From Methanomassiliicoccaceae archaeon (lineage in GTDB: Archaea > Thermoplasmatota > Thermoplasmata > Methanomassiliicoccales > Methanomethylophilaceae), in contig JAIRTZ010000103.1 of NCBI GenBank assembly GCA_031254685.1, positions 1-36,910 on the forward strand: a DNA stretch of 36,910 nt, read 5' to 3'. A program made the position numbers and the translations under genes. This document shows, piece after piece, positions 1,968-33,691 of this stretch (its first letter is position 1; every line of letters begins with the position of its first letter). The notes beneath the pieces were generated by a model. The model saw nothing but the letters and a program-made list of their open reading frames with translations. It ran no database searches and was not told the DNA's origin.

Positions 1968-2137
1968 TGTCTTCTCCTCTCACTCAGCATATTCCGAAAG
2001 TTAATAACAGTTACGGGAAACAACATCGGCGGACGCATTGTTGTTAACGGCGAGTAATATTAAGTATCAGCAGCGTGTTAACAATTATCACGATTCGCGG
2101 CCGGATACCGAACGGCCGTTCAGGATCAGAATATCAT

Positions 2138-9621: not shown

Positions 9622-9622
9622 C

Positions 9623-18217: not shown

Positions 18218-19840
18218 CTGTACGTGATCGACGGCGGCAAGAAGACGGCCCTTACGAAGGAGGTCGGCAGATATATCATTCCGGTGCAGCACCTTCTGAA
18301 CTCATCGACCGTGACGGTGTACATGGACGGCCTCGTCGCCGATCCGGTCAGGGATATGGTCATCGTCGACACATCGGACACATTCGACGGTACGATCAGG
18401 TATACGATAGACAGGGCGCACATCTTCTGCGCCGGCACACTCTACGCGGATATCGACAAGACGGGATTCGTGCTTACGCTGCTCGGAGATTACGTCAGGT
18501 CCGACATTGAGATCTATGTCGCACTCGGTGACGAAAGGATATACCTCACGAAGGACGGCAGCGGAAAATACATCGTTCCGGTGGAGATCATCCTCGGCGC
18601 GGACATCGTGACGCTGAGCATCGACGGCCTCGTCGCCGACCCGCTACGCGGGATGACGATCATCGACGCATCCGGAACATACTACGGGAACGCCAAGTAT
18701 TCGATAGACAGGGAGCACTCGTTCGACGGCAGCACACTCTACGCGGATATCGACAAGACGGGATTCGCGATCACGCTGATGAGAGATTACATTAACTCGG
18801 ACATCGCGATCTATTTGCTCATCGGTGACGAAAGGACGCTCCTCGAGACCGACGGCGACGGCAGATATGTCATTCCGCTCCGGACGCTCATCGACGCGGA
18901 TAAGATCGCATTATGCATCGAAGGCCTCGTCGCCGACCCGATACGTGAGATGACAATCGCCGACCCATCGGGAATGCACTGCGGGAACGCCAAGTATTCG
19001 ATTGACAGGGAGCACTCGTTCGATACGAACGGCGTTCTGTACGCGGATATCGACAGCAAAGGATTTGCGATCGCCCTCTCGGAGGATTACAAGGGATCGG
19101 ACATCAGGATATACATGATCCTCGCTGACGGAAGGACGCTTCTCGAAACGGACGGGGACGGCAGATATATGATCCCGCTGATGACACTTCTCGACGCGGA
19201 TATCATCGCATTATGCATCGAAGGCCTCGTTGCCGACCCGGTACGGGAGATGACCATCGCCGACAGATCGGGATATTATTACGGGATTGCCAAGTATTCG
19301 ATAGACGGGCCGCACTCATTCGACAAGGACGGCCGTCTGTCCGGCATCATCGATAAGACGGGGTTCGCGATCACGCTGATGACGGATTATTCGTCATCGG
19401 ACATAGAGGTGTACATGACGGTCGGCGGCATCGCGACGGCGGTCGGGAAGGACGGCAGCGGAAAATACATCGTTCCGCTGGAGACGCTTCTCGCGTCGCC
19501 ATCGGTGACCTTATTCATCGAAGGTCTCGTTGCGGACCCGGTACGCGATCTGGTGATGATCGACGTATCCGAGGGATCCGACGGTACGGTAAGATATGCG
19601 ACAGATCTGGAACACTCATTCGATCCGGACGGGATCCTTTTCGGAAAGATCGGCAGGACGGGTTTCGCTGTCACGCCGGAGGAGGGATACAATGTCTCCG
19701 GGATCTCGATATACATGACCCTCGGGGACGGGAGGCTCTACATTGAAAAAGACGCGGAAGGCAGATATATCGTCCCTCTGGAATATATTCTCGTCGCGGA
19801 AACGGTGACATTATACATTGACGGCATCATGAAAAACATT
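17456..19840 (+). repeat. Eight tandem coding repeats of 294-303 nt (98-101 aa) in the adhesin gene
   Basis: Repeat units start at 17456, 17759, 18053, 18350, 18647, 18944, 19244 and 19544. Each begins R-x-M/L-x-I-x-D and ends (I/V)(D/E)GLVADP(V/I/L). Units 5-7 are the most similar to one another (GNAKYSIDREHSFD, LLETDGDGRY.IPL, ALCIEGLVADP.REMTIAD). Confidence 0.9.
18215..18217 (+). other. In-frame amber (TAG) codon inside repeat 3 of the adhesin gene: nonsense mutation, or read-through/pyrrolysine candidate
   Basis: Same reading frame on both sides (15677 and 18224 are both congruent to 2 mod 3). Repeat 3 reads ATA TAG CTG TAC GTG, whereas repeat 2 reads ATA CAG CTG TAC GTG at 17917-17931. 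Confidence 0.85.
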
Positions 19841-20080
19841 CCCGCCGCAGATGATAATGATGACGATAAAGATGACGATGACAAGATCGATCATAAAAAT
19901 GACGGCGGAGCGATCATCGCCGCGGACCCCGGAGGGCCCGGGATGCTGGCATTTATATGCGTATTCGTCTTTATCGCACTCGGCGCGGGGTTGACCGCGG
20001 TCAACACATTGCGCACAAGGTCGATACTGAGGCTCTGCGGCAAGGGGGATACGGATGATAAAGAGAATGAGCAAACTTGA
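18218..20080 (+). CDS. GLUG-motif adhesin-like surface protein, C-terminal continuation: rest of repeat 3, repeats 4-8, Asp-rich linker, TM anchor
   Basis: Repeat homology continues without break across the TAG. No SD or ATG lies at the ORF-track GTG start (18224). The C-terminus has AADDNDDDKDDDDK and the hydrophobic helix GMLAFICVFVFIALGAGLTAV. TGA stop. Confidence 0.75.
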   Translation: MYVIDGGKKTALTKEVGRYIIPVQHLLNSSTVTVYMDGLVADPVRDMVIVDTSDTFDGTIRYTIDRAHIFCAGTLYADIDKTGFVLTLLGDYVRSDIEIYVALGDERIYLTKDGSGKYIVPVEIILGADIVTLSIDGLVADPLRGMTIIDASGTYYGNAKYSIDREHSFDGSTLYADIDKTGFAITLMRDYINSDIAIYLLIGDERTLLETDGDGRYVIPLRTLIDADKIALCIEGLVADPIREMTIADPSGMHCGNAKYSIDREHSFDTNGVLYADIDSKGFAIALSEDYKGSDIRIYMILADGRTLLETDGDGRYMIPLMTLLDADIIALCIEGLVADPVREMTIADRSGYYYGIAKYSIDGPHSFDKDGRLSGIIDKTGFAITLMTDYSSSDIEVYMTVGGIATAVGKDGSGKYIVPLETLLASPSVTLFIEGLVADPVRDLVMIDVSEGSDGTVRYATDLEHSFDPDGILFGKIGRTGFAVTPEEGYNVSGISIYMTLGDGRLYIEKDAEGRYIVPLEYILVAETVTLYIDGIMKNIPAADDNDDDKDDDDKIDHKNDGGAIIAADPGGPGMLAFICVFVFIALGAGLTAVNTLRTRSILRLCGKGDTDDKENEQT

Positions 20081-20660
20081 CGAGTTCTGCATGCCGGAGG
20101 TCTTTGTCATCGATACCGAGACCACCGGCCTCGACGGCGCGCCCAAGGATAAGGTCGTGGATATCGCGATATGCAGGGTCACCTTGGGCGGGGACAGCGT
20201 CGACACGGTATATTCATCGATCGTCGGCCACGATACCTCGAAGTGGAACAATGAGCTCAGGCACGCGTGGATATTCGAGAACACCGACCTCACCGCGGAA
20301 ATGGTCCGCAATGCGCCGCCTGAAGCGGACGTGGTGCGCGATGTCTCGCGGATACTCAGCGGAAAGAATGTCACAAGCTTCAATTATTCCTTTGATTTCG
20401 ACAAGTTCCTGTACAGACAGCCGTGGTCCCTGCGCGATATCATCGTTCCGTTCAAATGCGTCATGATAGCGTCCAAGGACGTCTGCAGACTGCCGGGGAT
20501 GTACGAGGATTACAAATATCCGAGGCTCGACCAGGCGTACTCCATGATCGTCAAAGGAGACCCGGCGGGGATCGCCGGAAAGCAGGCGCACAGGGCGCTG
20601 TCGGATGCCGTGATGGCGTCATACATCTTACTGGAACTTTACAGAACGGGGCACTACTGA
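20067..20660 (+). CDS. DEDDh 3'-5' exonuclease (DnaQ/RNase T superfamily)
   Basis: ExoI VFVIDTETTGLDG, ExoII VTSFNYSFDFDKFL and ExoIII HRALSDAVMASYILLEL. The start is ATG 20067 (MSKLDEF) or 20055, overlapping the adhesin gene end. The 3' end overlaps the convergent ATPase gene by 7 nt. Confidence 0.8.
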   Translation: MSKLDEFCMPEVFVIDTETTGLDGAPKDKVVDIAICRVTLGGDSVDTVYSSIVGHDTSKWNNELRHAWIFENTDLTAEMVRNAPPEADVVRDVSRILSGKNVTSFNYSFDFDKFLYRQPWSLRDIIVPFKCVMIASKDVCRLPGMYEDYKYPRLDQAYSMIVKGDPAGIAGKQAHRALSDAVMASYILLELYRTGHY

Positions 20661-23245
20661 TCCTTCTTCTTGCGGATGCTCTTGAGGCGCAGCGAATACA
20701 GCCATTCGGTGAAGTTGGTGGCCTTCTCGAGTATCCCGTTCCTTAATACCCATCGCGTGACGAAGAACCATGCGACCGCCACCCCGATCGTGACCGCATA
20801 GATCGGCCAAGGCAGCGGCGGTATATCGACGAACTCAGAGAACACGGGATAGTTGAACACCCCCCAGTACGCCAGCGCAAGCAGGCCGAAGAGAAGGAAT
20901 GCGAGTATGGTCGGTTTGATGTCCTTTGCGATCCTTCCGTCAACGGAGAAGAATCTGAACCGCGGGACGACGACCGTCATCTGCGCTATCGCCACGACGA
21001 CAAGGAACAGCAGCAGCGAGTTGCGTGCGACGATCTCCGGGATGGCGTCCTCTGTGGCGTTGTTGAAACCGAACAGCGCGAGATCGCCTGATGTGAGGTC
21101 GACCCTGAATATCCCGTCGAACAGATGATGGCTCATACCGATATGGAAGAACGAGTACAGCAGCATCCCGAATATCGTTATCAGGATCGCCGTCGGTATC
21201 GCGAACCTGAGCACCTCCGGTAAGATCGAGCCCTCGACCTTCGACGGCTTCGCCCATACCACCATGAAGAACGACCCGATCGAAAGACCGATGATGGCAT
21301 AGAACGTCGCCGTTATCGGAACGAGCGGGGGCGCGTGGAACAGGATTATCGTAAGGAAGACGAGCAGGCATATCACGAAGTTCCTGGAAAGATACATCTT
21401 CAGTATGTCGCGCATCCCCGACACGGTGCGGTTGCCCTCGATCATGGCCTTCGGCAATGCCGAGAAATCATCCGACATAAGTACCATGTCGGCCACCCCG
21501 CGCGCGGCGCCGCTCCCGCTCTGCAGCGCCACACCGACGTTGGCCTCTTTCAGCGACCTCACATCGTTCACGCCGTCGCCGACCATTGCGACGTATCTCC
21601 CGCTGTCCTTCAGTGTTTTTATCACCATCTGCTTCTGATCGGGCTTCATGCGTCCGAAGATGTTCGTCTCAAGTATCCTTTCCTTCCTCGCGGGATCGCT
21701 CAGCTTATCAAGCTCATCGCCGGAAAGTATCTTCCTTTCGCCGGGGAGCCCGGCGATCATGAACAGCGAGTTCACGGCCTCGGGGTCGTCGCCCGATAAT
21801 ATCCTGATCTCCATGCCGTTGTCGATGAACTTGTTCATCGTATCCCTGCAGTCCGGTCTTACCTCATCCTCGATCGCTATAACCGCGACAGGTTCGAGAT
21901 CGGGAAGTATCGGAACGTCTCCGTCATAGAATCCGCCGCCCGCACCGGTCGCGAGGACAACGGCCCTCAGCCCGCGCGAGGAATATTCTTTCACGGCATT
22001 CTCGATGCCCTTGGTATCGGTCATATTCCTGGAGAGGACATTGAACGCCCCCATTATCAGCATCACTTCGTCATCGCCTTCGATAACGCGTACGCCGGAA
22101 TATTTGCGCTCGGGAGAGAACATTATCTCGTCAACGAGTTCCGTCTCGGTCTTTCCGTATCTGTTCGCTATCGCGTCTATCGTCTTGTTCCTGCTGCCGG
22201 TGGCGGATGCGAACACCGTCGCGTAATGTTCCGCCAGGGCCAGATCGGTCACGGGGGTGATGCTGTTGAATACCAGACGGTTCGTGGTTATCGTTCCCGT
22301 CTTGTCCATACAGACGGTGTCCACGTGGCTTATCGATTCTGTTGCGTTCGCCCTCTGCAGGAGGACGCCAGAGTCGGACATGCGCACAGCGGCGATCATA
22401 TACGCGATCACAAGCATCGGAAAGAGCCCGATGGGCACCATGTCGAGAATGACCTCGGCCATCTTGGCGCTCTCTGCGCTGTTGATGTCGACGATGCTGT
22501 GCGTCGTGAGGACGTTCCAAAGGATCATCACCGCGAGATAGACCAATGCGATGGCCATCATGAACTTGGTCACCGCGCCGGTCTCCATTTGCAAAAGGCT
22601 GAGTTTGTTGTCAAATTTCTTCGCGCTCGCAAGCATCTTCGCCGCGAACGTCCTGTCTCCGAAGACGGTCACCTGATAATATCCTTCGCCGGTGACGCAG
22701 TGAGAGCCCGAGTATATCATGTCGTCGGCCTTTTTTCTCACTGTCCGGGATTCTCCGGTCAGCAGGGATTCATCCATCTCTATGGAACGGACCTTAAGGA
22801 GGACGCCGTCGACCAGCGCCTGGTCGCCGCTCCGGAGATGGATCACGTCGTCCTTCACGATCATCGATTGATCTATCTCCTCCTCGATGCCGTTCCTGAT
22901 GACGGCCACCTTCGGCCTCATGAGCAGCGCGATCTTATCCAATCGGCGCTTCGCCCGGATCTCCTGTATCGTCGCGATCACGATGTTTATCGTTATCATC
23001 CCGACCGCCGCCAATGCGCTCGGGATCTCGTGGAAATAAAGGAGAACGGCGCCCAGCGAGAACAGTATGAGGTTGAATATCGTCAGAACATTTCTGGTGA
23101 CGATATCAAAATAGGTCCTGCTGACGACAGGCTCCACGGAATTGATCTCTTTGTTGGAGATCCTTTCGGCAACCTGGCTGTCCGTCAGTCCCTCGAATTC
23201 CATATACGTAAATCGCACACGCTTATAAAAAACGTGTGAGGTCAT
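20654..23245 (-). CDS. P-type cation-transporting ATPase (type II/III-like) with non-canonical TM4 motif PIGL
   Basis: LTGES actuator motif, phosphorylation site CMDKTGTITTN, hinge MVGDGVNDVRSLKEANVGVAL and about 10 hydrophobic helices. TM4 reads MVPIGLFP where Ca/Na,K pumps have PEGL. The start is ATG 23245 (ATGA overlap with the upstream stop) or ATG 23203 (MEFEGLTDSQV). It ends in TAG with an in-frame TAA five codons later. Confidence 0.9.
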   Translation of the reverse strand: MTSHVFYKRVRFTYMEFEGLTDSQVAERISNKEINSVEPVVSRTYFDIVTRNVLTIFNLILFSLGAVLLYFHEIPSALAAVGMITINIVIATIQEIRAKRRLDKIALLMRPKVAVIRNGIEEEIDQSMIVKDDVIHLRSGDQALVDGVLLKVRSIEMDESLLTGESRTVRKKADDMIYSGSHCVTGEGYYQVTVFGDRTFAAKMLASAKKFDNKLSLLQMETGAVTKFMMAIALVYLAVMILWNVLTTHSIVDINSAESAKMAEVILDMVPIGLFPMLVIAYMIAAVRMSDSGVLLQRANATESISHVDTVCMDKTGTITTNRLVFNSITPVTDLALAEHYATVFASATGSRNKTIDAIANRYGKTETELVDEIMFSPERKYSGVRVIEGDDEVMLIMGAFNVLSRNMTDTKGIENAVKEYSSRGLRAVVLATGAGGGFYDGDVPILPDLEPVAVIAIEDEVRPDCRDTMNKFIDNGMEIRILSGDDPEAVNSLFMIAGLPGERKILSGDELDKLSDPARKERILETNIFGRMKPDQKQMVIKTLKDSGRYVAMVGDGVNDVRSLKEANVGVALQSGSGAARGVADMVLMSDDFSALPKAMIEGNRTVSGMRDILKMYLSRNFVICLLVFLTIILFHAPPLVPITATFYAIIGLSIGSFFMVVWAKPSKVEGSILPEVLRFAIPTAILITIFGMLLYSFFHIGMSHHLFDGIFRVDLTSGDLALFGFNNATEDAIPEIVARNSLLLFLVVVAIAQMTVVVPRFRFFSVDGRIAKDIKPTILAFLLFGLLALAYWGVFNYPVFSEFVDIPPLPWPIYAVTIGVAVAWFFVTRWVLRNGILEKATNFTEWLYSLRLKSIRKKKDQ

Positions 23246-26070
23246 CCGCCCGCGAAGGAGGCGATACGCTGATAAATCTCGTCGATGCCGATCGGTTCCA
23301 CGGTAACGGAGATGCCTTGCGACACATAGTCGATCACGCATACCACGGGCTTCCCGAGCGACGACGCGGCGTGCGCGTAAACGCTCATCTGAATACGGTA
23401 ACGCGGCTCGTTGTCACGATTCATGTCGGTCTTGAAATCATGGACCTCCACGCGGTCCTTGAATATCGCCAGCATGTCGATGCGCCCGGCGATGACCGTG
23501 TCCTTCATCGGAAGGGAACAATCCGTTTCCGTCAGTATCTCCGCGCCCTTCAGGGAATCGTATATCTTTCTGATGTATCTTGTCTCATCATCGCTGACGC
23601 TCGGGATCATCCCGGACATTATCCTCTGCGCATCCTTGTGGACGCGTATCCCGTGATCGGCGCCCTTTCCTCCGCCGCTCTCCTCGTATGCGCCCATGAT
23701 GTCGTGCAGGGATATCCGGTTCATACGGGGCTCATATCCCGGGACGGACGGTCTTTCGTTCACCGCCGCCGTCACGGTCCGCTCCCGCTTCTCAAGTATC
23801 GGGTCCGTATCGGTCATTTCGCCGTCGCAGACGTCCCTGATGAAATATGACGGCTTGGTGCCGAAGCAGGTCATCGTTATGTACTGCCTGGCGCGCGACA
23901 GCGCCACGAAGAACAATCTCCGTTCCTCGTCGCGGTCCGGCGGAAGACTGTCGATGATGTTCCATTTCCAGCATTTGAACACCTTGTGATGTTTGCCCGT
24001 CACAACGTAATCGTTCTTCAGGCGCACGCCGTACAGCGGGTCGAACGCGATCACCGAATCATCATGCTTGTCGAGCGGCATCTTGCTCATCGTCAGCCCC
24101 CCGACGATGACGATCGGATATTCGAGCCCCTTCGATTTGTGCATCGTCTGTATCATAACGGAGCGGCCGTCAAGCGGCGCGTCGACGTTGTATCTCGATC
24201 CCCTTTTCATATCCGTTTCGATGAGCCCGATCATCTCCGATATCGTCAGCATGCTGCCGCTGTGCGTTGACGATATCGTTGAGATTATGGACTGCGTGAT
24301 ATCGTTGTTCAATCCGTGGTATGCGAATATCGACGTCAGCAGGTCGTTTATCCTCCGTCTCTTCGTCCTCAGCGTCTCGCGATGCCTCTCCATCCCGTCG
24401 GGTATGCACGGGACGCCGTGCCTGGGGAACATCGCGCGCAGCTCCGCGAGCGTGTATCCCGAGTCGGCGAGTATCGTCACGGGGCCGCGGAGGTCGGTGC
24501 GGTTGTTGATGTATCTCAGCCAGGCGAGCACAAGCTTTCCCTCGCGGGTGTCCATGATGCTGACATCGCCCTGGAGATGCGCCGGTATCCCGTAACGGTC
24601 GGCTTCGTTCTTTATGTCGATGCACATCTTGTTCGCCCTGCACAATACCGCGATGTCGCCGTATTCCGGCTGTCTGTCGCGGATGATATTTCCGTCGGCA
24701 TCGTAAACGGGGATGCGGTACCGCGGGTCCGTTACGTATTCGGTGATCCTCTGCAATATCGCAAGCTTTTCCTTGTCGTATGTTTCCGCATGCAGTCTTT
24801 CCGCGTGCGTATATCCGCCGTGGTCCCTGAACGCCGTCAGCTGCGTCACGTTCGCGTCAAGGTATGCGGTGTCGATCGTCTCATCCTTCCTTGCCCTGCA
24901 CCGGAGCGTCCTGAACGCGGCGTCGATGACCGTCTGCGAACTTCTGTAGTTCTCGGTCAGCGGCAGCGAAACAGGTTCGCCGTCGAACGGAACGACACGT
25001 TTCTCCCCTTTGTTCAGGAATCTCGTCATTTCCGCGAGGCGCTCTCTGAAATGTATCATGTTGTCGACGCTCGCGTACCTGAATCCGTAGATTCCCTGCT
25101 TCCAGTCGCCGACGGCGCAGAGGTTCGGTTCACGGAGGATCAGGAGCGATATCATGAACTGCAGTTCGTTCGTATCCTGGAACTCGTCCACCATTACGTA
25201 ACGGAAGGACATCATCTTCCTGACCCGCTTGCTCGAGTAAAGGATGATGAACGCGAACAGCGCGTTCAGGCCGAACGTCAGCCTGTTGTCGGATATCGAC
25301 GATCGTATGTATTCGTAATAGACGCCGTTGATGAACCGCAGGAGAAGCGCCCTCGGGTCGTTCGCGGCCTCCTTTATCATTTCCCCGGTCACCTCATCCA
25401 GTCTTCTGTCCGGCGGCAGGTCGTTGGCCGCCGCGGAGTACCGCACGTTCGCTCTCTCGGTATTCTTTGATAACTTTTCGATAAGCTTTTCGGTGTCCCC
25501 GAACAGCGAGTCCCTGCTGCGCCCGAACCATCCCTCGTCGTGCGTCGGCGCGATGCCGATGGCCATCAGCCGTTGGATGACGTCGTACACATCCGACGCG
25601 GACGTTCCGACGATCGCCGGTATATTTCCGTATATGTGCCCGTATCTTCTGATGAACCGGGTGTACACGTTCCTGAAATATTCTTGGTCAATGGTCTCAT
25701 TCTGCACAAGCCTGGCGTTCCTCGTAAGTGTTTCCTTCGTCTTGAAGAACTCTTTCACCGTTTCCGGCGATTCCATCACCACCCGCAGACAGAATGCATC
25801 GAACGTCGACGAGCGGACGGCGGACGCATCGGCGTCCGCAGACGAACAAAGCATCTCGCTCTTCACGCGCCCCTCCATCTCCAGGGCGGCGTTGTTGGTG
25901 AACGTCAGCAGAAGGATGTCGGACGGGGCAACCTCCTTTCTGAGGATGTTAAGGTATCTCTGCACGATGGTGTGCGTCTTCCCGGTGCCCGGCCCGGCAT
26001 CCACGGCGACGATGCCGTCCGTCGTCTCCGCGATCTTCTGCTGGCGCTCATTCAGATTCGTCATCGTCAC
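23242..26070 (-). CDS. UvrD/Rep-family SF1 helicase fused to a C-terminal PD-(D/E)XK (RecB-type) nuclease; AddA-like
   Basis: Walker A VDAGPGTGKTHT, motif II MVDEFQDTNELQF, motif V/VI TMHKSKGLEYPIVIV and FFVALSRARQYITM. C-terminal nuclease motifs GIRVHK, GRIDML, EVHDFKT and YRIQMSVYA. It overlaps the upstream gene by 17-23 nt. Confidence 0.85.
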   Translation of the reverse strand: MTMTNLNERQQKIAETTDGIVAVDAGPGTGKTHTIVQRYLNILRKEVAPSDILLLTFTNNAALEMEGRVKSEMLCSSADADASAVRSSTFDAFCLRVVMESPETVKEFFKTKETLTRNARLVQNETIDQEYFRNVYTRFIRRYGHIYGNIPAIVGTSASDVYDVIQRLMAIGIAPTHDEGWFGRSRDSLFGDTEKLIEKLSKNTERANVRYSAAANDLPPDRRLDEVTGEMIKEAANDPRALLLRFINGVYYEYIRSSISDNRLTFGLNALFAFIILYSSKRVRKMMSFRYVMVDEFQDTNELQFMISLLILREPNLCAVGDWKQGIYGFRYASVDNMIHFRERLAEMTRFLNKGEKRVVPFDGEPVSLPLTENYRSSQTVIDAAFRTLRCRARKDETIDTAYLDANVTQLTAFRDHGGYTHAERLHAETYDKEKLAILQRITEYVTDPRYRIPVYDADGNIIRDRQPEYGDIAVLCRANKMCIDIKNEADRYGIPAHLQGDVSIMDTREGKLVLAWLRYINNRTDLRGPVTILADSGYTLAELRAMFPRHGVPCIPDGMERHRETLRTKRRRINDLLTSIFAYHGLNNDITQSIISTISSTHSGSMLTISEMIGLIETDMKRGSRYNVDAPLDGRSVMIQTMHKSKGLEYPIVIVGGLTMSKMPLDKHDDSVIAFDPLYGVRLKNDYVVTGKHHKVFKCWKWNIIDSLPPDRDEERRLFFVALSRARQYITMTCFGTKPSYFIRDVCDGEMTDTDPILEKRERTVTAAVNERPSVPGYEPRMNRISLHDIMGAYEESGGGKGADHGIRVHKDAQRIMSGMIPSVSDDETRYIRKIYDSLKGAEILTETDCSLPMKDTVIAGRIDMLAIFKDRVEVHDFKTDMNRDNEPRYRIQMSVYAHAASSLGKPVVCVIDYVSQGISVTVEPIGIDEIYQRIASFAGG

Positions 26071-28729
26071 CGCCCCTTGTGCATATCTGCCGGAAATAGC
26101 ATCTGTCGCATCCCTTCCTCGGCGTGTACGGGAAACCGCTGTGCTGCTGCTCGTTCGCCCTCTTGTGTATCTTACGCGCGTATTCCTTGAATCTCCCGAT
26201 CGATTCTCCCGGGATGATTATTCTGTTCTCGTCATCGATCACGATGAAGCATCTCATCAGCAGCTTGGCGGAATCCCGGATAACTTTTTCAGTTTCCTCG
26301 CGTGCCGCTTTGGTCCGCTTCCCGTGCATCGCCATGATCCTTTCAAAAAGTTCCGTATCCCCGGCCCACCTCTCCGGGTTCCCGACGCCGGCGGCCAGCA
26401 GCGCGCTCCCGAATCTGCTGCCGAGTTCCGTAATGATGTCGCTGGTCTTCCTGGTGCACACCATTCTGAGCACCGTCCCGTTACGGACGATGTCCTCGCG
26501 GCTCAGCAGCGAGATGGTTCTTGCATTTTTCATGATGTTGAAGTCCGGGTCGTTGGCAGATTCGACATCATTGTCCGTCGTATAGAATTGAATGAACTCC
26601 TTCTTCCCGGTGCCTCCGAGCATGTCGTCGAGTATCGAGAGATAAACGAACGGCTGCAGCTCGTAATAATCGTTCTTTTTGGACGCATCCATCTTCTTCG
26701 CGATATCATCGACATTGTACGGCCTTCCCGATTTGTAATCAATTATGCGGTTGCCGTACAGCAGGTCGAACCTCCCCTCCAGCGGGGTCGCGTCGGAACG
26801 GCACGACCTTTCCATGATGTCCGTTCGTTGATCTTTTCCGAAGTGCTCGAAGAACGGGTTCCTTCTGCCTTTCGGTGCGTCGGTGAGCTGCACCGCGATG
26901 TTCAGGGAATCAATGAACCGTGACACATTGGTCATCGACACCCGTATCCTCGATCTGTCGAGCTCCCGTTTCTCGGGACACGATATCCCCGCCCACGCGT
27001 CGGCGAGTATGTCCGTGCATGTTTCGATATTCGTCCTTGCGATGTCGGGATAGCAGAGGCAGAATTCCGCGAACTCGTGGACCATGTTGCCGAAGACGAT
27101 GCCCTCGGTGTCCGGCGGCCCGACAAGTTCTCCGAACATGTACGCCATCGGGCATGTGACATAGAGGTTCATCGTCGACTTCGAGAATCTGCGTATGTCG
27201 CCGTCCGTGCCGCCGGCAGGATGCCTGTCATTCGCAGGCGGTGCGCCGGGGGAGCACCATGCGCCCCTGACGACCGTCGTGTTAACGAGGTCGCCGAACG
27301 ATGAGACCTTTCTCATCACGCCGTCCGCGTCGGTGTTCAGACGGTCGAAGAGCGTGCAAGGCCTCGCCTCCTTGCCGCCTTTCATCGTGTTGACGAGATG
27401 CATCCTCACGGAACCCTGCTGCAGGAGTATCTGAAACCTCTGTCTTTCCTTCTCATCCTCTTCGGCGCGGTCGATATAACTTTCACCGGCAGCGGACCCC
27501 GACCAGGCGCCGTCCATGTTCACGTATATGACGAACGGCCGATCGATGAACGCCGAATTGCGGCAGTCCGTCAGGAGAACGCCGCGTCTCTCATTGTCGG
27601 GGATCTGCGCGTTGTGCTTTATCCCGTCCATCGAGTTTATCAGGTACGATGCGTGGCCGGCCGTCCTTTCATTGATCAGTTCATCACCCAGGCCGAGCTC
27701 CCCGAATATCATGTTAACGGTCCCATTGGCGCCCTTGCCGACGATCGCGCCGCAAAGCTCGGAGAACGTGTGTTCTCTAATATTCTTCATTTTCTCCGAG
27801 AGCGCTTTAGCGCCGTCCTTCGATATCCTCGCGTGCCTGTCCAGTAAGTATTCGTCGAACCTGCTGTCCATCCATACCCCGTAGCATGCGAACAGTTCTC
27901 TTACGTCGCCAACCGTTAAAATCTCGTATGAGAGCGATCTCGTCACGAACTCCATGAAATCCCTGACGTCGATGAGGTCCCTTGCGCTCAGTGTGTTCTT
28001 GAATCCTATCCCTTTCCGATACAGCGCGGAACGCACCGCGTCGGATATCGCCCCCTGCGTGTCCATGACTATGGCGACGTCCTCGGTGCTGCGTCCGGCG
28101 ATCATATCGACCGCGTGCTCCGCGACCTGTCTGTCGTTGCCGACCGCGTACACGGTTCCGATATCGTAGCGGCCATTCTCTTTGAATAAGGAGATATCAT
28201 CAAAATCCATCGGGATGAAATGCTTATCGAGATCGTCAAAAAGCTCGATTCCGATCACCGCGACCTTTTTTCCGTCATAAGTATGATGTTCCGACGGGTC
28301 GAAGGACGCCATCACCAACTCGTATGTCGGCAGTTCCGTGTATATCCTGTATATCTCCCTCGAGGACCTTCCGGCCAGATATTTTTCGACATCCTTCCTG
28401 TATCTTCTGATAAGACGGATGTTCTCCACTTCCCCGTGAACGAAACGTATGTCGTGCTTCGTCGCCTTCGTTATGAGGTCCAAAATGCGGACGTCGTCCA
28501 TTATCCCGTATCTTCCGTCCCTTGTGCATCTGCCTTCAGACATCAGCTTTTCGAGGATCGCGTCCTCGCGGTCCTTGGCGATCATCCTCGGGGTTGACGC
28601 CAATCTGCCGATCCTCGGCGCATCGATGCGGTTGTTCAGCGCCGTCACTAGCGCGGCGTCATTGGAAATGACGATATCGTATCTTTTCGATTCGTCATAC
28701 AGCTCGTCAATGGTCTTGGCAACCTTCAC
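26048..28729 (-). CDS. AddB-like protein: degenerate helicase-like N-terminal region plus PD-(D/E)XK nuclease with a four-Cys iron-staple signature
   Basis: No Walker A motif in the N-terminal ~550 aa. The C-terminal domain has C-x...GNMVHEF, EGRFDLLYGNRIIDYKSG and YELQPFVY. One upstream Cys (YVTCPMAYMF) plus terminal CDRCYFRQIC (CxxCx5C) matches AddB/Cas4 Fe-S nucleases. The only start at the ORF head is GTG 28729. Confidence 0.72.
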   Translation of the reverse strand: MKVAKTIDELYDESKRYDIVISNDAALVTALNNRIDAPRIGRLASTPRMIAKDREDAILEKLMSEGRCTRDGRYGIMDDVRILDLITKATKHDIRFVHGEVENIRLIRRYRKDVEKYLAGRSSREIYRIYTELPTYELVMASFDPSEHHTYDGKKVAVIGIELFDDLDKHFIPMDFDDISLFKENGRYDIGTVYAVGNDRQVAEHAVDMIAGRSTEDVAIVMDTQGAISDAVRSALYRKGIGFKNTLSARDLIDVRDFMEFVTRSLSYEILTVGDVRELFACYGVWMDSRFDEYLLDRHARISKDGAKALSEKMKNIREHTFSELCGAIVGKGANGTVNMIFGELGLGDELINERTAGHASYLINSMDGIKHNAQIPDNERRGVLLTDCRNSAFIDRPFVIYVNMDGAWSGSAAGESYIDRAEEDEKERQRFQILLQQGSVRMHLVNTMKGGKEARPCTLFDRLNTDADGVMRKVSSFGDLVNTTVVRGAWCSPGAPPANDRHPAGGTDGDIRRFSKSTMNLYVTCPMAYMFGELVGPPDTEGIVFGNMVHEFAEFCLCYPDIARTNIETCTDILADAWAGISCPEKRELDRSRIRVSMTNVSRFIDSLNIAVQLTDAPKGRRNPFFEHFGKDQRTDIMERSCRSDATPLEGRFDLLYGNRIIDYKSGRPYNVDDIAKKMDASKKNDYYELQPFVYLSILDDMLGGTGKKEFIQFYTTDNDVESANDPDFNIMKNARTISLLSREDIVRNGTVLRMVCTRKTSDIITELGSRFGSALLAAGVGNPERWAGDTELFERIMAMHGKRTKAAREETEKVIRDSAKLLMRCFIVIDDENRIIIPGESIGRFKEYARKIHKRANEQQHSGFPYTPRKGCDRCYFRQICTRGGDDDESE

Positions 28730-28810
28730 ACCGTCACATTCTGTTACGGATATTAAAGGTTGACAGGGAGGTGGCCGAAAGTGGAGAAATGACGGAAAGT
28801 ACCGTCCCGA

Positions 28811-29245
28811 TCATTTTCTGTCCTTGATCTTGAATCCGATGAACGTCGCGGTGGCTATGTGCTTCTCATCGGAGTAGACCTTTACGTTATACGTTGACAC
28901 CGAGTTCGTCTCGCTGACCTTCGACGTCACCGCCACGAGCTTCTTCCCCGTTCCCGGCCTATGGTAGACGATGTTGCCCTGCAGCGCTATCTGCTTCTCA
29001 AAAAGGTTGGCGGCGAACGCGAACGCGTTATCGGCGACCGTATACGTTGCGCCGCCGTGCGCGAACATGAGGCTGTTGTACTTGTTGGTCATGGGCATGC
29101 TGCATCGCACTTCGTCCCTAGTTATGCTGTCGATCCGTATCTCATTGAAGATCGTGTACTGCGCGTGATATATGCTGCGCACGTTCTCAAAGACCTCGTC
29201 GCGTATCGATACGTCAATTGCGTCCCGTATCTCGTCGTCCCTCAT
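28811..29245 (-). CDS. PaaI/4HBT-family hotdog-fold thioesterase
   Basis: 144-aa ORF with NSLMFAHGGATYTVADNAFAFAA (the HGG...AD motif) and LVAVTSKV...YNVKVY typical of PaaI-type thioesterases. Confidence 0.78.
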   Translation of the reverse strand: MRDDEIRDAIDVSIRDEVFENVRSIYHAQYTIFNEIRIDSITRDEVRCSMPMTNKYNSLMFAHGGATYTVADNAFAFAANLFEKQIALQGNIVYHRPGTGKKLVAVTSKVSETNSVSTYNVKVYSDEKHIATATFIGFKIKDRK

Positions 29246-29319
29246 GAGTGCCCCAATATCAAGAGGGATATAACATCTTTCTGATAGGCTAAAATACGAA
29301 AGACGCAGTACTCAGGCCG
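29246..29319. promoter_or_regulatory. Divergent promoter region with two TATA-like boxes, each ~25-27 nt from a start codon (implies leaderless mRNAs)
   Basis: TTATAT on the minus strand (plus 29268-29273) lies ~25 nt upstream of ATG 29245. CTAAAATA (29289-29296) lies ~27 nt upstream of ATG 29320. No SD is visible for either gene. Confidence 0.35.
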
Positions 29320-30651
29320 ATGTCCGCGGTCATTTCAGTATCGGAGCTCAACGAACGGGCGAAAGCCGTCCTGGCGGCGGACCCGTCGCTCAATGACGTT
29401 TGGGTATCTGGTGAGATTTCAAATCTCACGAAGCACACGTCCGGGCATTATTATTTCACTCTGAAGGATACGAAGAGCGAAGTGCGCTGCACGCTGTTCA
29501 GAGGGGCGCGGAACACTCTGCCCTTCGAACCCGCGGAGAGCATGAAGGTTTTGGCCTTCGGTTCCGTCGACATGTACGTCGCCCGCGGTTCCTATCAATT
29601 CAACGTTTCGACGATGAGGAGGTCCGGCATAGGCGACATGTACCTCGCGCTCGAGGAACTGAAGAAAAAGCTGAAGGCGGAAGGTCTGTTCGACGACGCG
29701 AGGAAACGTCCGATACCGAAATACCCGGTCACCGTCGGCGTCGTCACGTCGCCGACCGGCGCGGCGATACAGGATATAATCAAAGTTTCGGCGAAGAGGT
29801 TCCCCGCGCACATACTTCTCGCCCCGGTGCTCGTTCAGGGCGAGGGCGCCGCGGCGTCCATCGCAAACGGGATTGAATTAATGAACACCCTGCCCGTTGA
29901 CGTTCTGATCGTGGGAAGGGGCGGCGGCTCCGCCGAGGACCTCTGGGCGTTCAATGAGGAGAAGGTGGCAAGGGCGATAGCCGCGTCACGGATACCCGTG
30001 ATATCGGCGGTCGGCCACGAGACCGATTTCACAGTGGCGGACCTGGTGGCCGATCTGCGCGCGCCGACGCCGTCGGCGGCGGCAGAGACAGCATTGCCCG
30101 ATATATCGTCAGAGATACGGAACATTGACAACATGATGATGCGCGCCTCGGGTTCGCTGATGCACTGCATCGGAACGATGCGCAATGACTTTAAGGTCCT
30201 GGATTCCAAGCTGTCGCCGAGGCGCGCTAAAGAGACCGTCGACGCGAATATGCGGAATATCAGCGAAATGACACGCAGATCGCTGTTCGCCGTCCGCTCG
30301 TTGCTGAACGGAAAGGCCGCGGCGTTCAGGACGCCGGACGCGAAACTGTCGCCGAGGCGCGCGAAAGACACCGTCGCCCAATATATCATGGCGATGGACG
30401 AGATCTCGGCGTCCGCGGACGCATCGCTGATACGGATCGTCTCCGATAAGAAGAGGGACGTATACGCCGCGGAACAAAGGATGAACGCGATCAATCCGAT
30501 GAAGGTCCTGGAAAGGGGATACAGTTTCGTTACCGGCGCCGACGGAAGGACACTGACGTCGGTGTCGCAGATATCATACGGTTCCGATGTGGAGATAAGG
30601 ATGAGGGACGGAAGCGCCAAAGCGAAGATAAATGAGGTGAGGAAGAAATGA
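29320..30651 (+). CDS. xseA: Exodeoxyribonuclease VII large subunit
   Basis: N-terminal OB fold VSELNERAKAVLAADPSLNDVWVSGEISNLTKHTSGHYYFTLKD. Catalytic core VGVVTSPTGAAIQD, GRGGGSAEDLWAFNEE and VGHETDFT. C-terminal coiled coil with two LSPRRAK segments. Confidence 0.9.
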   Translation: MSAVISVSELNERAKAVLAADPSLNDVWVSGEISNLTKHTSGHYYFTLKDTKSEVRCTLFRGARNTLPFEPAESMKVLAFGSVDMYVARGSYQFNVSTMRRSGIGDMYLALEELKKKLKAEGLFDDARKRPIPKYPVTVGVVTSPTGAAIQDIIKVSAKRFPAHILLAPVLVQGEGAAASIANGIELMNTLPVDVLIVGRGGGSAEDLWAFNEEKVARAIAASRIPVISAVGHETDFTVADLVADLRAPTPSAAAETALPDISSEIRNIDNMMMRASGSLMHCIGTMRNDFKVLDSKLSPRRAKETVDANMRNISEMTRRSLFAVRSLLNGKAAAFRTPDAKLSPRRAKDTVAQYIMAMDEISASADASLIRIVSDKKRDVYAAEQRMNAINPMKVLERGYSFVTGADGRTLTSVSQISYGSDVEIRMRDGSAKAKINEVRKK

Positions 30652-30869
30652 AGGAAGTAAGCGAAATGACGTTCGAGGAAAGTCTCAAGGCACTCGAAGA
30701 ACTGGTGGACATGCTTGAGAACGGAGGCCTCGATCTGGATAAAAGTCTGGACATATACGAGAAGGCCGTCAAGTTACGGGATCACTGCAGGACGATACTC
30801 GAGAACAGCGAGAGACGGGTGCAGAAGATCATGGAGACGGCGGAAGGCATACGGAAAGAGGACGTCTGA
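30648..30869 (+). CDS. xseB: Exodeoxyribonuclease VII small subunit
   Basis: 73 aa. FEESLKALEELVDMLENGGLDLDKSLDIYEKAVKL is the canonical XseB helix-turn-helix hairpin. ATGA overlap with xseA. Confidence 0.88.
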   Translation: MKEVSEMTFEESLKALEELVDMLENGGLDLDKSLDIYEKAVKLRDHCRTILENSERRVQKIMETAEGIRKEDV

Positions 30870-30870
30870 A

Positions 30871-31725
30871 TCACGGGGCCCACAGTCTGAATCTGTTCTC
30901 CGACGACCATTTCGACGTTTCGCGGAATAACGCGGTCGAATGGAACGTTTCCTTTTCGTACGCAAGGCGCAAAGCGCCTCCGAGCTCGCCGGATCTGATA
31001 TATTTGGAGTTGTAAGACCCGAAGATCTCGCGCAGTCCGAACGCAAGCACCGATATCATGTCATGGCCGCGGCAGACGTCCCACGGGCTGCGCTCATCCT
31101 TCAGCTCCCTGTTCAGCTGCGCCGCGAGGTCCTTCTTCGCGACATGCGAATGCTGCGAGTTCGATAATAATACGTCGATCATCGTCTCGATGTTCACCTT
31201 CAATCCCTTTCGGTCCACGAACAGCGAATGGTCGGGGTCCTTGAACGAAAGGTCATGCTCGTGCATATCGGACACGTACATCAGCATTCCCAGCGGATAG
31301 CACGCTGCGGTGAGGGCATCACGCACCTGACCGTACTTGTTCACGAACGTTTCCAATCTGTCCTCGTCCGCGTATTCCAGCAGGACGCTGTCCAGTGCGG
31401 AGCTTCTCATCATCACCGTGTCGGTATCGCGGCAGTCGGTGCCGAACACCGGGCGCGCATGCGTTATCCCTTTCAGCGTGTCGAGGTCATTGTCCACTAT
31501 CCCGAGCACCTTGCGGTCGTTCCTCCGCAGATACGATTCCCTGACCGAATTTCTTACGTTATCCTTGGACTGGGCGACGATCACGGTGCATGCGTCCTCG
31601 TCTGTGTACTTCCGGTAAAGCCTGCAGTCGGTGACCCCTTCGACAACAAGGAAGGACCCGTCGAAGAACGAGCGTTTCATCGATATCTCGTTCGCAATAT
31701 CGGACGCACGGATGAATTCACGCAC
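30871..31725 (-). CDS. DUF4435-like TOPRIM protein (AriB-like candidate nuclease effector)
   Basis: 284 aa. N-terminal FLVVEGVTDCRLYRKY supplies the TOPRIM glutamate in the DUF4435 context, and LGIVDNDLD supplies the DxD. The GTG start at 31725 overlaps the upstream ATPase gene by 8 nt; the alternative is ATG 31680. Confidence 0.68.
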   Translation of the reverse strand: MREFIRASDIANEISMKRSFFDGSFLVVEGVTDCRLYRKYTDEDACTVIVAQSKDNVRNSVRESYLRRNDRKVLGIVDNDLDTLKGITHARPVFGTDCRDTDTVMMRSSALDSVLLEYADEDRLETFVNKYGQVRDALTAACYPLGMLMYVSDMHEHDLSFKDPDHSLFVDRKGLKVNIETMIDVLLSNSQHSHVAKKDLAAQLNRELKDERSPWDVCRGHDMISVLAFGLREIFGSYNSKYIRSGELGGALRLAYEKETFHSTALFRETSKWSSENRFRLWAP

Positions 31726-32755
31726 TTCCAGCCCTCAGTTCGTTAGTAAGGTCCCAGTCGTCGTGGACGATCTGCGGGGAATGCGTCGCCGCAACGATCT
31801 GCAGGTCCCTGAGCCTCGCGACGTCCTTCAGAACGGGGCCGATCCTCTGCTGCCATGACACGTGCAGCGATATCTCGGGTTCGTCGATCATCACGAACGA
31901 GCCGGGCAGCGTCTGGAACAGCAGCCTGTACAGAATGATGAATATCTGCTTCTCGCCCGACGACATGTCCTTCACGGGTATCGTCATACCGTTGTCGAGC
32001 ACGAAAGTTATGTGCCCCTTCGCGTCTATCGTCATGTCCTTGTCGGAAAGGAAACTGTTCATGATGTCCCTGAACACTATGACCGATTCCGAGAAATGAT
32101 GGTTCTTGCTGACAAAATCGGAGATCCCGTGCACGAGGTCCAGATATTCCTTCCGCGACCCGGTGAGGTCGTACCTCGTCGGCGGGAACTTCAGTCCCGC
32201 GGGTATGTCGACGGTGAATCCGGCGTCGCGCATGAAGTTCAGCTTCGCGTTCAGGTCCTTCGCCCAGAATATGAGCTTATCGTCGCCCATGTCGTCCTTA
32301 TACTCGGGAACGGTCAGCGCACGGTTCTTGCGCGATTCCTTGATCTTGTTCGAAAGGTCGTTCGCATACGCTTCCGCGGCCGGTACTATGTGGCCGTCGC
32401 CTCTCTTCATGTACGTGCGCTCCGGACCGATGAACGTCGCCCCCGTGAGGGACGCCAGGTCGGCGGATGTCAATTCCGTTTCAAGCTCGTTCCTTTTCAT
32501 CTGCACGAGCAATTCATTCTCGGAACGCACAACGATCAGATTCTCACCCTTTTCGAAGAACAGGTCCAATCGTTGGAACGGGACGTTCGCCAGCTCTTTG
32601 ACGTTCCCGGTGAGCAGCAGCGATATCATCCGTATCAGCGTGCTCTTCCCGCATCCGTTCGGCGAGTGCACATAGGTGAGACCGCCGTCGAATATGTTCA
32701 CCGTATGGTCGTGGCGTCCGAAAAGCCCCTGAACTGAGATCCTTTTTATCTTCAT
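31718..32755 (-). CDS. ABC/SMC-type ATPase (AAA_21/AAA_15-like; AriA-like)
   Basis: MKIKRISVQGLFGRHDHTV start typical of RecF/SMC-like ATPases. Walker A SPNGCGKSTL, signature SSGEKQ, Walker B/D-loop FVMIDEPEISLH and H-loop VAATHSPQI. The preferred start is ATG 32755; the ORF-track GTG 32764 is less likely. Confidence 0.8.
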   Translation of the reverse strand: MKIKRISVQGLFGRHDHTVNIFDGGLTYVHSPNGCGKSTLIRMISLLLTGNVKELANVPFQRLDLFFEKGENLIVVRSENELLVQMKRNELETELTSADLASLTGATFIGPERTYMKRGDGHIVPAAEAYANDLSNKIKESRKNRALTVPEYKDDMGDDKLIFWAKDLNAKLNFMRDAGFTVDIPAGLKFPPTRYDLTGSRKEYLDLVHGISDFVSKNHHFSESVIVFRDIMNSFLSDKDMTIDAKGHITFVLDNGMTIPVKDMSSGEKQIFIILYRLLFQTLPGSFVMIDEPEISLHVSWQQRIGPVLKDVARLRDLQIVAATHSPQIVHDDWDLTNELRAGSA

Positions 32756-32778
32756 CGGTCTCACTTATCGGCTTTGGA

Positions 32779-32787
32779 ATATATAGA
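32779..32787 (-). promoter_or_regulatory. TATA-like box ~28 nt upstream of the ATPase ATG (leaderless transcript implied)
   Basis: CTATATATT on the minus strand (plus 32779-32787). There is no SD between it and ATG 32755. It could also serve the divergent TPR gene. Confidence 0.3.
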
Positions 32788-32839
32788 ACATACCGGAACC
32801 CGCAATAACTTTATTTCAAGCGAACACGTGCGGGTGCCG

Positions 32840-33691
32840 ATGGACACCGAAAAGGCATTCGATACGATCGGGAAACATATCGCGGCCGGCGAGTATGGGA
32901 AAGTAAGACCGGTGATCGACACGATCGCGTCATCGGTCGGCGACGTCCCGACGCTGCTGAAATGCGCCTCGCTGCTGAAAGTGGTGGACGACGAGGACGG
33001 ATGCCAGAACATTTTGGACCGCGTCATTGAAATGAGGCTCGATACCGCCGCCGAGAGACTGTCGGCGGCCTCTGCGCTCAGAGGCCTCGGAAGGGCCGAG
33101 GATGCATACGGGATGATCAGGGATGATGAGGACACGGTACCCGCCCTTCGGGAGAAATCAAGGATGCTCCTGATCATGGACGAAGGAGAGACCGCGCTGT
33201 CGAAGATCAGAAGGATAACGGATATGACGGCATCGGACAAAGTGCTCCTCACCGAGATATTATGCTCGATAGGCGAGTTCCGGGAAGCTCACGAGACCGC
33301 GTCGCGTCTTGTGAAGGACGAGGACGCGTCGTATGCATCACTGGTGAACCTATGCACAACGCTCATGCTCATGGGAAAGAACAAAGAGGCCGTTAAAACC
33401 GCGAGGCAGCACCTGAAGGAGGATAAGAAGGACGCGGACTCGCTGGCGCTTGCCGCCTATGTCATGAGGATCAACGGGAAGATGTCCGCCGCCACAGCGT
33501 TCGCCCACCGCGCGATAGCCGCAGATCATACGCATGCAGGCGCCCTGGAGACGATGGCGTTCTGCCTTATCGAAAAATCAAGGTTCATCGAGGCCAAGGT
33601 GATGGCCGGCGCTATAAACGACAAAAGCCCGGGACACCCGGCGGCGATACGGATACTTGATGCGTGCAGGATAGCCAAGGGCGGACGCTGA
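32840..33691 (+). CDS. TPR-like helical repeat protein
   Basis: ~283 aa, all-helical and Ala/Leu-rich with 34-aa-like periodicity (e.g. ASLVNLCTTLMLMGKNKEAVKTARQHLKEDKKDADSLALAAYVMRINGKMSAATAFAHRAIAAD). ATG 32840 is preferred over TTG 32774. Confidence 0.55.
   Translation: MDTEKAFDTIGKHIAAGEYGKVRPVIDTIASSVGDVPTLLKCASLLKVVDDEDGCQNILDRVIEMRLDTAAERLSAASALRGLGRAEDAYGMIRDDEDTVPALREKSRMLLIMDEGETALSKIRRITDMTASDKVLLTEILCSIGEFREAHETASRLVKDEDASYASLVNLCTTLMLMGKNKEAVKTARQHLKEDKKDADSLALAAYVMRINGKMSAATAFAHRAIAADHTHAGALETMAFCLIEKSRFIEAKVMAGAINDKSPGHPAAIRILDACRIAKGGR

Follow-up and report, generated by a model that had tools for sequence, protein, structure and literature searches.

The window analyzed here, a stretch of 36,910 nucleotides (nt) from a Methanomassiliicoccaceae archaeon (assembly GCA_031254685.1, contig JAIRTZ010000103.1), carries a two-gene operon coding for an ABC/SMC-type ATPase and a DUF4435/TOPRIM protein, a predicted nuclease. 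The two proteins are true homologs of AriA and AriB, the components of the PARIS systems (class 4 of the OLD family), and share with them architecture, folds and catalytic residues. At least in the intestinal clade of the Methanomassiliicoccales, they are encoded by a fixed, vertically inherited, strongly constrained and non-mobile chromosomal gene pair. The current picture of PARIS is that of a mobile abortive-infection system of bacteria, and in a recent survey of the OLD family class 4 was confined to bacteria (PMC12796447). We view the pair as a minimal-AriA clade of the class 4 OLD/PARIS family that is archaeal and core: the kind of system is known, while an order-level fixed PARIS homolog is unexpected. 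A literature search recovered no paper linking the Methanomassiliicoccales with PARIS. On balance, we lean towards the view that the pair has been domesticated, as a TOPRIM nuclease gated by ATP that serves the cell, and is not a horizontally traded abortive-infection system.

The initial annotation of this DNA had proposed two minus-strand genes with an 8-nt overlap, coding for an ABC ATPase followed by a DUF4435/TOPRIM protein in the architecture of PARIS. The open reading frames (ORFs) lie at the stated coordinates, and they and their translations contain the overlap and all of the quoted motifs (Table 1). The start of the ATPase is the ATG at 32755, which is conserved in homologs and chosen by gene callers as well. 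Residues 1-15 of the DUF4435 protein are conserved among full-length homologs; hence, the long GTG-initiated form is the real one. Invariant residues of the ATPase include K37 of Walker A, S265, G267, E268 and Q270 of the signature, D291 and E292 of Walker B and H325 of the H-loop, and those of the DUF4435 protein, across 20 diverse homologs, are E29, D33, D78, D80, D97, D100 and R219-D222. Profile searches recover the ATPase with the Pfam models AAA_21 (E=1.8e-22; 81 bits against a cut-off of 27) and AAA_15 (E=2.3e-17) and the second protein with DUF4435 (E=2.1e-12; 47.7 bits against a cut-off of 27), all of them exceeding the curated gathering cut-offs. The PADLOC models of AriA and AriB match the respective proteins with E=1.5e-28 and E=1.2e-17.

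Comparisons to known structures and to bacterial pairs likewise bear out the PARIS architecture. By sequence, the best match of the ATPase in the PDB is E. coli AriA (8ux9, 8v45; E about 7e-21), followed at a distance by Rad50 (5e-8), and this match falls into two blocks: residues 6-81 of the query against 6-80 of AriA, and 201-334 against 298-430. A fold search with its AlphaFold2 model (mean pLDDT confidence 90.8) places AriA chains in the top 16 positions (E about 1e-20 to 1e-14; template-modelling (TM) score about 0.6), with Rad50 and PtuA next (E about 1e-12). The DUF4435 protein, used singly or as a 20-sequence profile, matched nothing in the PDB by sequence and did not reach AriB. Its AlphaFold2 model (pLDDT 94) has just two significant PDB matches, both of them AriB chains of PARIS complexes (8ux9_A and 8v46_D; probability 1.00, TM 0.52-0.55, identity 11-12%). 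Profile-profile alignment with hhalign to six bacterial pairs, one of them from Pseudoalteromonas, aligns the ATPase to AriA over 339 columns (E=8.2e-56) and the DUF4435 protein to AriB over its full length (E=3.8e-53), each with a probability of 100%. In these alignments Pseudoalteromonas AriA stands in for the E. coli protein (67% identity over a 133-aa query fragment, with a numbering offset of about 2).

The catalytic apparatus is retained along with the folds. The two-metal TOPRIM site of E. coli AriB is formed by E26, D30, D88, E90 and E122 (PMC11464382), with which hhalign aligns E29, D33, D78, D80 and D/E102 of the archaeal protein. Of these, E29, D33, D78 and D80 do not vary among 20 homologs, while position 102 holds an acidic residue both in the window protein and in the family consensus. 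A helix at the N-terminus of the nuclease (residues 7-17), predicted with high confidence, is conserved as well; the equivalent helix docks on AriA in E. coli PARIS (PMC10802264), the docking site being the AriA head-head interface. Thus, as in PARIS of E. coli B185 (PDB 8ux9, 8v45-8v49), two co-oriented, overlapping genes code for an AAA_21/AAA_15 ATPase with Walker A, signature, Walker B and H-loop and then for a DUF4435/TOPRIM protein with the five acidic residues and the helix. The pairing of an ABC ATPase with a TOPRIM domain, seen in the Pfam, fold and hhalign matches, also places the system in the OLD family in the broad sense. More remote relatives share the ABC ATPase core: P2 Old, GajA of Gabija and PtuA of retron/Septu systems give weaker PADLOC, PDB and fold matches, all many orders of magnitude below AriA; however, Old and GajA combine ATPase and TOPRIM in a fusion protein, and the partner of PtuA is an HNH nuclease. 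Rad50/SMC proteins also have an ABC ATPase head split by a helical or coiled-coil insertion (fold matches about 1e-12), but their coiled coils are far longer, with a zinc hook or hinge, and their partners are Mre11 or kleisins and not TOPRIM proteins.

The shared architecture, folds and catalytic residues and the conserved AriA-docking helix are what would be expected if the pair were canonical PARIS that happens to be fixed and vertically transmitted: the ATPase would sense a protein of a Methanomassiliicoccales virus and release the TOPRIM nuclease, which would cleave tRNA and halt translation. In known PARIS, the trigger is a viral anti-restriction protein and the freed nuclease cleaves tRNA-Lys. 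Rule-based tools would also call the pair PARIS, given that PADLOC matches both proteins and that the PARIS models of DefenseFinder are the Pfam AAA_15 and AAA_21 profiles. We nevertheless regard this alternative as rather unlikely, for reasons that lie in the shape of the ATPase and in the distribution and evolution of the pair.

The initial annotation had described the ATPase as shorter than bacterial AriA, and rightly so: the 345 residues of the window ATPase compare with 464 in E. coli AriA (from the PDB) and with 414-460 in the six bacterial pairs. Among the related archaeal loci with a usable start, 59 of 66 encode an ATPase of 342-359 aa, about 100-120 residues shorter than bacterial AriA. 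In the hhalign alignment the main gap, of ~60 columns, lies just after archaeal residue 87 and corresponds to AriA residues about 88-139, with smaller gaps through the helical domain; the AlphaFold2 monomer has just three helices between the two lobes. In E. coli AriA the central-pore loop comprises residues 113-124, IS1 (residues 122-180) is predicted to recognize the trigger and IS2 (242-289) enables the hexameric propeller, which has central and radial pores (PMC11464382). The main gap covers the central-pore loop and the start of IS1, as far as an approximate mapping via Pseudoalteromonas numbering can place it. On this mapping, canonical PARIS defence would have to operate with the segment bearing the trigger-binding loop and the IS1 start largely absent.

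What remains of the helical domain carries a clade-specific motif at its tip, in residues 158-200: FW·KDL·AKL·F··DAGF···P·G··FPP·RY. Across 77 sequences the conservation of this region (0.68) equals that of the catalytic C-lobe (0.68) and lies above that of the N-lobe, and the motif is not evident in the consensus of the six bacterial AriAs. The pore residues of AriA are poorly conserved, which Burman et al. attribute to adaptation to different viral triggers (PMC11464382). The archaeal tip shows the opposite pattern, highly conserved and not fast-evolving, which is at odds with the sensing of viral triggers and, on the strength of these alignments, suggests a stable partner or ligand. Such a natural minimal AriA lends itself to telling apart the parts of the scaffold needed for control of the nuclease and those needed for trigger sensing.

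The pair is widespread within its order. About 210 close homologs of the DUF4435 protein were recovered, all named ones from the Methanomassiliicoccales, with identities falling smoothly from 80% to about 43%; the homologs of the ATPase show the same taxonomic and identity pattern. A scan with one genome per GTDB species found a relative encoded in 146 genomes, this being a count of genomes and not a share of all Methanomassiliicoccales genomes, and the best 80 of the 146 loci are all from the Methanomassiliicoccales. Together with two loci from a separate contig search these make up the 82 loci examined, with some overlap (L001 is the same site as L035, and L002 and L009 share one gene block). 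Among named lineages, the Methanomicula-like ones of termites are closest to the window, and they are basal in the Methanomethylophilaceae (PMC10684969); hence, the loci span the whole of that family.

The genomic context is equally uniform. Wherever the contig extends that far, the ATPase gene lies directly upstream of the DUF4435 gene in all 82 loci; the latter is directly followed, convergently, by the exonuclease VII gene xseB in 82/82, and xseA is present in 80, both exceptions being contigs that end just past xseB. A divergent TPR-repeat gene precedes the pair in most of the 82 loci, and many extend the block with thioesterase and AddAB-like genes at one end and hisD at the opposite end. 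The spacing is tight: the median gap is 94 bp between the TPR and ATPase genes (69 loci; larger gaps in 12) and 19 bp between the DUF4435 gene and xseB (larger gaps in 5 of 82). Where ORFs in the larger gaps match a family, their products are SBF-type transporters, a GT87 glycosyltransferase, a methyltransferase and one AAA_14/DUF4143 ATPase (a PDC-S01 candidate); others match nothing. A defence hotspot in the flanks was considered and rejected, the rare insertions carrying ordinary genes. Three lineages have a third same-strand ORF of 250-269 aa between the DUF4435 gene and xseB (L047:7816-8619, L052:7816-8625 and L081:7854-8606), which comes directly after the DUF4435 gene or overlaps its end; that of L047 encodes an S-adenosylmethionine-dependent methyltransferase with a weak match to mad2 of MADS.

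Eight of the 80 loci are filed under bacterial organism names (L042, L049, L066, L067, L069, L070, L073 and L077), and each has the full archaeal block. In the four of them with a contig reaching hisD, the encoded protein is 63-64% identical to HisD of the window. These eight records are evidently mislabelled bins. The labels belong to ‘cleanbin’ isolates: Ruminococcus sp. CAG:579, Bacteroides ovatus, Prevotella hominis, Lachnospiraceae, Bifidobacteriaceae, Firmicutes CAG:194 and Bacteroidaceae. Among metagenomic loci anchored on XseA, the two of archaeal type with enough flanking sequence both carry the pair; generic patterns returned mostly bacterial xseA and had little power. The adjacency of the pair to xseAB is not a general property of xseAB.

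The history of the pair is one of vertical descent under constraint. Pairwise protein divergence tracks that of HisD (r=0.90 for the DUF4435 protein and r=0.93 for the ATPase), and the mean rate of the pair is similar to that of XseA and slower than that of its TPR neighbor. The median ratio of nonsynonymous to synonymous substitution rates (dN/dS; NG86 method, 19 non-overlapping close pairs) is 0.10 for the ATPase and 0.09 for the DUF4435 protein, as compared to 0.11 for XseA, 0.07 for XseB, 0.035 for HisD and 0.20 for AddB. In a neighbor-joining tree, computed without support values, all sampled archaeal sequences form one clade, which lies inside a broader radiation of DUF4435 proteins (about 285 aa) and is remote from the E. 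coli-type AriB. The nearest nuclease outgroup consists of proteins of about 285-295 aa, like the archaeal nuclease, with 28-37% identity to it: a DUF4435 homolog of Methanosarcina and those of cyanobacterial AAA_15/21-DUF4435 pairs (Microcoleus, Symploca, Oscillatoriales). The cyanobacterial pairs examined have the same operon order but differ in an ATPase of 441-452 aa and in a context that changes from genome to genome (PIN, ISL3 transposase, Uma2, DNA polymerase B). Such patchy, island-like contexts are the pattern expected of defence genes, and to find the nearest relatives in variable, mobile-looking surroundings of this kind is a further point in favor of a PARIS defence function. Most likely, the pair was acquired once from bacteria and then passed on vertically throughout the intestinal clade (the Methanomethylophilaceae and relatives).

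No sign of mobility was found. A search of 2.9 million viral contigs found no relative; in the plasmid and phage collections, three plasmids and one phage (two accessions) carry relatives, all with at most 28% identity, the distant plasmid relatives having ATPases of 414-464 aa. Hence, neither the viral contigs nor these collections show carriage of the archaeal clade itself. Around the pair the GC content is normal and no flanking direct repeats were seen, and the 36,910-nt window has no tRNA or rRNA genes and no Rfam families, its remainder being ordinary chromosome. A mobile-element boundary was accordingly rejected, for want of flanking direct repeats, tRNA genes or a compositional shift. 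Family searches of the window and of the insertion ORFs recovered no defence genes in the neighborhood of the pair. The accessory or defence-island setting envisaged in the initial annotation therefore does not hold: the neighbors, xseAB and the AddAB-like genes included, are part of the same conserved block and not island cargo, with normal composition, no repeats and ordinary insertions. As for the PARIS-like module that it proposed, the homology stands; the reading as mobile abortive infection fails because the pair is a syntenic core pair, at least for the intestinal clade, vertically inherited in at least 146 species-level genomes, tracking HisD and with a dN/dS like that of xseA.

The same observations speak against canonical PARIS defence even in a fixed form: the distribution is uniform and syntenic instead of patchy, evolutionary rate and dN/dS are those of the repair gene xseA, and the archaeal clade is found neither on viruses or plasmids nor beside defence genes. 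The accessory, mobile distribution expected of PARIS, which resides on satellites, prophages, plasmids and variable islands, is replaced here by a syntenic, vertical and monophyletic one without island signs. The observations on the pair also bear on a quite different explanation, that of a selfish addiction module akin to toxin-antitoxin systems: the TOPRIM protein would be the toxin, the ATPase its antitoxin or chaperone, and the module would be kept because its loss kills, without benefit to the host. In E. coli, AriA does act as antitoxin and chaperone for the toxic AriB (PMC10802264), and the tight gene overlap would suit stoichiometric co-expression. An addiction module, however, does not protect its toxin gene from inactivating mutations; we consider it highly improbable because the catalytic residues of both proteins are invariant and dN/dS is about 0.1. 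Moreover, the chromosomal position of the pair does not change across at least 82 loci, and nothing points to mobility.

A cellular function is favored because the pair is core, strongly constrained, non-mobile and without most of the trigger-sensing segment of AriA. We consider a cellular, domesticated role more likely than a lineage-fixed antiviral one. Such a role could, we think, lie in nucleic-acid repair, processing or quality control, by analogy to Cran1 of the Sulfolobales. Cran1, a class 5 OLD protein, is vertically inherited across that order, has a role in the cell cycle and is not a defence system (PMC12796447). Like the pair described here, it is an archaeal OLD-family machine of ATPase and TOPRIM domains, order-wide and with a phylogeny matching the species tree, and hence a conceptual precedent for domestication (PMC12796447). 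It differs in being a single fused polypeptide of the OLD clade U11, encoded in an operon with a membrane protein, while the archaeal pair consists of separate PARIS-type genes. These two genes, with best matches to AriA and AriB and with TPR and xseAB neighbors, set the pair apart from the class 5 (Cran1-like) proteins as described.

By what steps might such a machine work? We infer that the ATPase would dimerize head to head around ATP and that the dimer, by analogy to PARIS, would hold the nuclease through the conserved N-terminal helix of the latter. Release or activation of the nuclease may then be governed by the binding or hydrolysis of ATP in combination with a ligand or partner that the helical-tip motif reads. 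Once freed, the nuclease would cut RNA or DNA via the two-metal TOPRIM site (E29, D33, D78, D80 and D/E102). As a tentative evolutionary scenario, a bacterial PARIS-type module could have been captured by an ancestor of the gut-associated Methanomassiliicoccales, have lost most of its virus-sensing insertion and have become a core housekeeping nuclease, the conserved helical tip of which reads a cellular partner or a nucleic-acid structure. The captured module may act together with the co-inherited bacterial-type AddAB-like and exonuclease VII end-processing enzymes. The adjacency to xseAB and AddAB-like genes is suggestive of nucleic-acid metabolism, with the proviso that hisD is equally syntenic.

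A special case of the cellular role would be an RNA-maturation enzyme, with the TOPRIM protein acting like RNase M5 in rRNA or tRNA processing and the ATPase as its loader or regulator. AriB and RNase M5 have similar active sites (PMC10802264), tRNA-Lys is cut by E. coli AriB (PMC11464382), and one outgroup homolog carries the label RNase M5 from the JGI. We judge this special case improbable: in a search of NCBIfam the pair did not match RNase M5, the window is devoid of rRNA and tRNA genes and of Rfam matches, and the conserved neighbors encode DNA-end-processing enzymes, though hisD is conserved nearby too.

Several considerations weigh against a domesticated cellular role as a whole. Fixation of a defence system in one lineage is possible in principle, and in N. 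meningitidis the presence of defence systems, PARIS included, depends strongly on phylogeny (PMC9090908). Synteny is no proof of function since the functionally unrelated hisD is equally syntenic, and part of the synteny is simply due to the small genomes being little rearranged. Secure coverage by named loci is confined to the Methanomethylophilaceae, with the basal Methanomicula, and does not extend to the Methanomassiliicoccaceae sensu stricto (e.g., M. luminyensis). Finally, the place of the IS1/IS2 deletion depends on how the profiles align across a helical region of weak similarity and on the proxy numbering of Pseudoalteromonas AriA.

A monophyletic archaeal clade, fixed, syntenic and with the constraint of a repair gene, would extend PARIS-type machines to the archaea. 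Taken with Cran1, it suggests that cellular roles of OLD-family enzymes are a recurring theme in archaea; if domestication is true, the OLD family would have its second known archaeal case after Cran1, and the split PARIS architecture its first. In practical terms, PADLOC and DefenseFinder would score one PARIS in every genome of the family, and defence counts of gut methanogens would be inflated if the pair is not antiviral.

The genes of the pair appear to be expressed as a unit. Of the related loci, 33 have an overlap of 8 nt between the ATPase stop and the DUF4435 start and 12 have one of 11 nt; one or the other is the rule, and the 8-nt overlap is a probable site of translational coupling. 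The leaderless promoter suggested by the initial annotation finds support in the TATA-like box of the window (Table 1) and in 63 unique upstream regions of relatives, which have a conserved AT-rich peak at -35 to -26 (at -30 to -26 the AT fraction is 0.82, as compared to about 0.45-0.5 in the background) and in which no Shine-Dalgarno-like signal was seen. These sequence signals support a leaderless or near-leaderless transcript of the two-gene operon.

At the same junction, about 9% of the related loci have lost the TGA stop of the ATPase, all in GC-rich lineages (L042, L049, L054, L058, L062, L066 and L069). The cause lies in codon 2 of the DUF4435 gene, which is CGC or CGA in place of CGT-GA (e.g., L042 at about 7001). 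In these loci the ATPase frame stays open for 110-320 codons more through the DUF4435 gene, giving ORFs of 454-668 aa; homolog protein clusters of 375-443 aa also fit a lost ATPase stop. The open ATPase frame inside the DUF4435 gene is generally stop-poor at high GC (r=-0.87 with GC). A reading of the 454-668 aa ORFs as AriAB fusions was rejected: they are out-of-frame read-through after loss of the junction stop, from which a run-on tail or a +1 frameshifted AriAB-like product may arise.

Table 1. Coordinates of the gene pair, its motifs and signals, and neighboring genes in the 36,910-nt window.
Feature	Position	Strand	Basis and details
ATPase ORF	31718-32764	(-)	mechanical ORF, GTG 32764 start, 348 aa
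AriA-like ABC/SMC-type ATPase	31718-32755	(-)	ATG 32755 start, 345 aa
AriB-like DUF4435/TOPRIM protein, predicted nuclease	30871-31725	(-)	GTG 31725 start, 284 aa
Walker A SPNGCGKST (ATPase)	32639-32665	(-)	translation
Signature SSGEKQ (ATPase)	31946-31963	(-)	translation
Walker B/D-loop FVMIDEPEISLH (ATPase)	31862-31897	(-)	translation
H-loop ATHSP (ATPase)	31775-31789	(-)	translation
TOPRIM Glu motif LVVEGVTDCRLY (DUF4435 protein)	31615-31650	(-)	translation; E29 at 31639-31641
DxD motif GIVDNDLD (DUF4435 protein)	31480-31503	(-)	translation
RGHD motif (DUF4435 protein)	residues 219-222	(-)	homolog alignment; invariant in family
ATPase stop (TGA)/DUF4435 start (GTG) overlap, 8 nt, GTGCGTGA	31718-31725	(-)	sequence
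TATA-like box CTATATATT	32778-32786	(-)	sequence; centre ~27 nt upstream of ATG 32755
Divergent TPR-repeat protein	32774-33691	(+)	TPR_19 and ANAPC3 matches; listed start TTG
xseA, exonuclease VII	29320-30651	(+)	Exonuc_VII_L 4.8e-95
xseB, exonuclease VII	30648-30869	(+)	Exonuc_VII_S 2.4e-17
RNase_T-type exonuclease	20055-20660		
AddA-like UvrD helicase-nuclease	23242-26070		
AddB-like PD-(D/E)XK protein	26048-28729		

The TPR gene shares its promoter region with the ATPase gene in the 69 loci that have both, and its true start may lie downstream of the listed TTG. Its product evolves faster than the pair (mean p-distance 0.60), still under purifying selection (dN/dS 0.11), and may be a third component or functional partner of the pair. 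On the other side, xseA and xseB are convergent with the pair and xseB ends 1 nt from the DUF4435 gene. They close a run of bacterial-type DNA-end-processing genes (20055-30869) that the archaeal family has kept together with the pair. Most of the XseA sequences recovered from metagenomes, which are probably bacterial, share 37-46% identity with the archaeal protein, a level that suggests an ancient acquisition from bacteria. Within xseA there is a 41-nt direct repeat (30201-30241 and 30336-30376, plus strand; 85% identical, 135 nt apart), which encodes a duplicated D(S/A)KLSPRRAK(E/D)TV peptide, an internal duplication in the helical part of XseA.

A second adjacency of a Toprim protein and an ATPase is found on the minus strand at 8104-11179, where a 518-aa Toprim_4 protein (9623-11179) is encoded directly upstream of a 505-aa Mg-chelatase/MCM-like AAA ATPase (8104-9621); these are probably an archaeal DnaG-type primase and its AAA partner. 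Three large plus-strand ORFs have no significant Pfam family: 2075-3700 (541 aa), 15677-18217 (846 aa) and 18224-20080 (618 aa). The ORF at 5698-7689 codes for a PLD-like protein with a lamin-tail domain.

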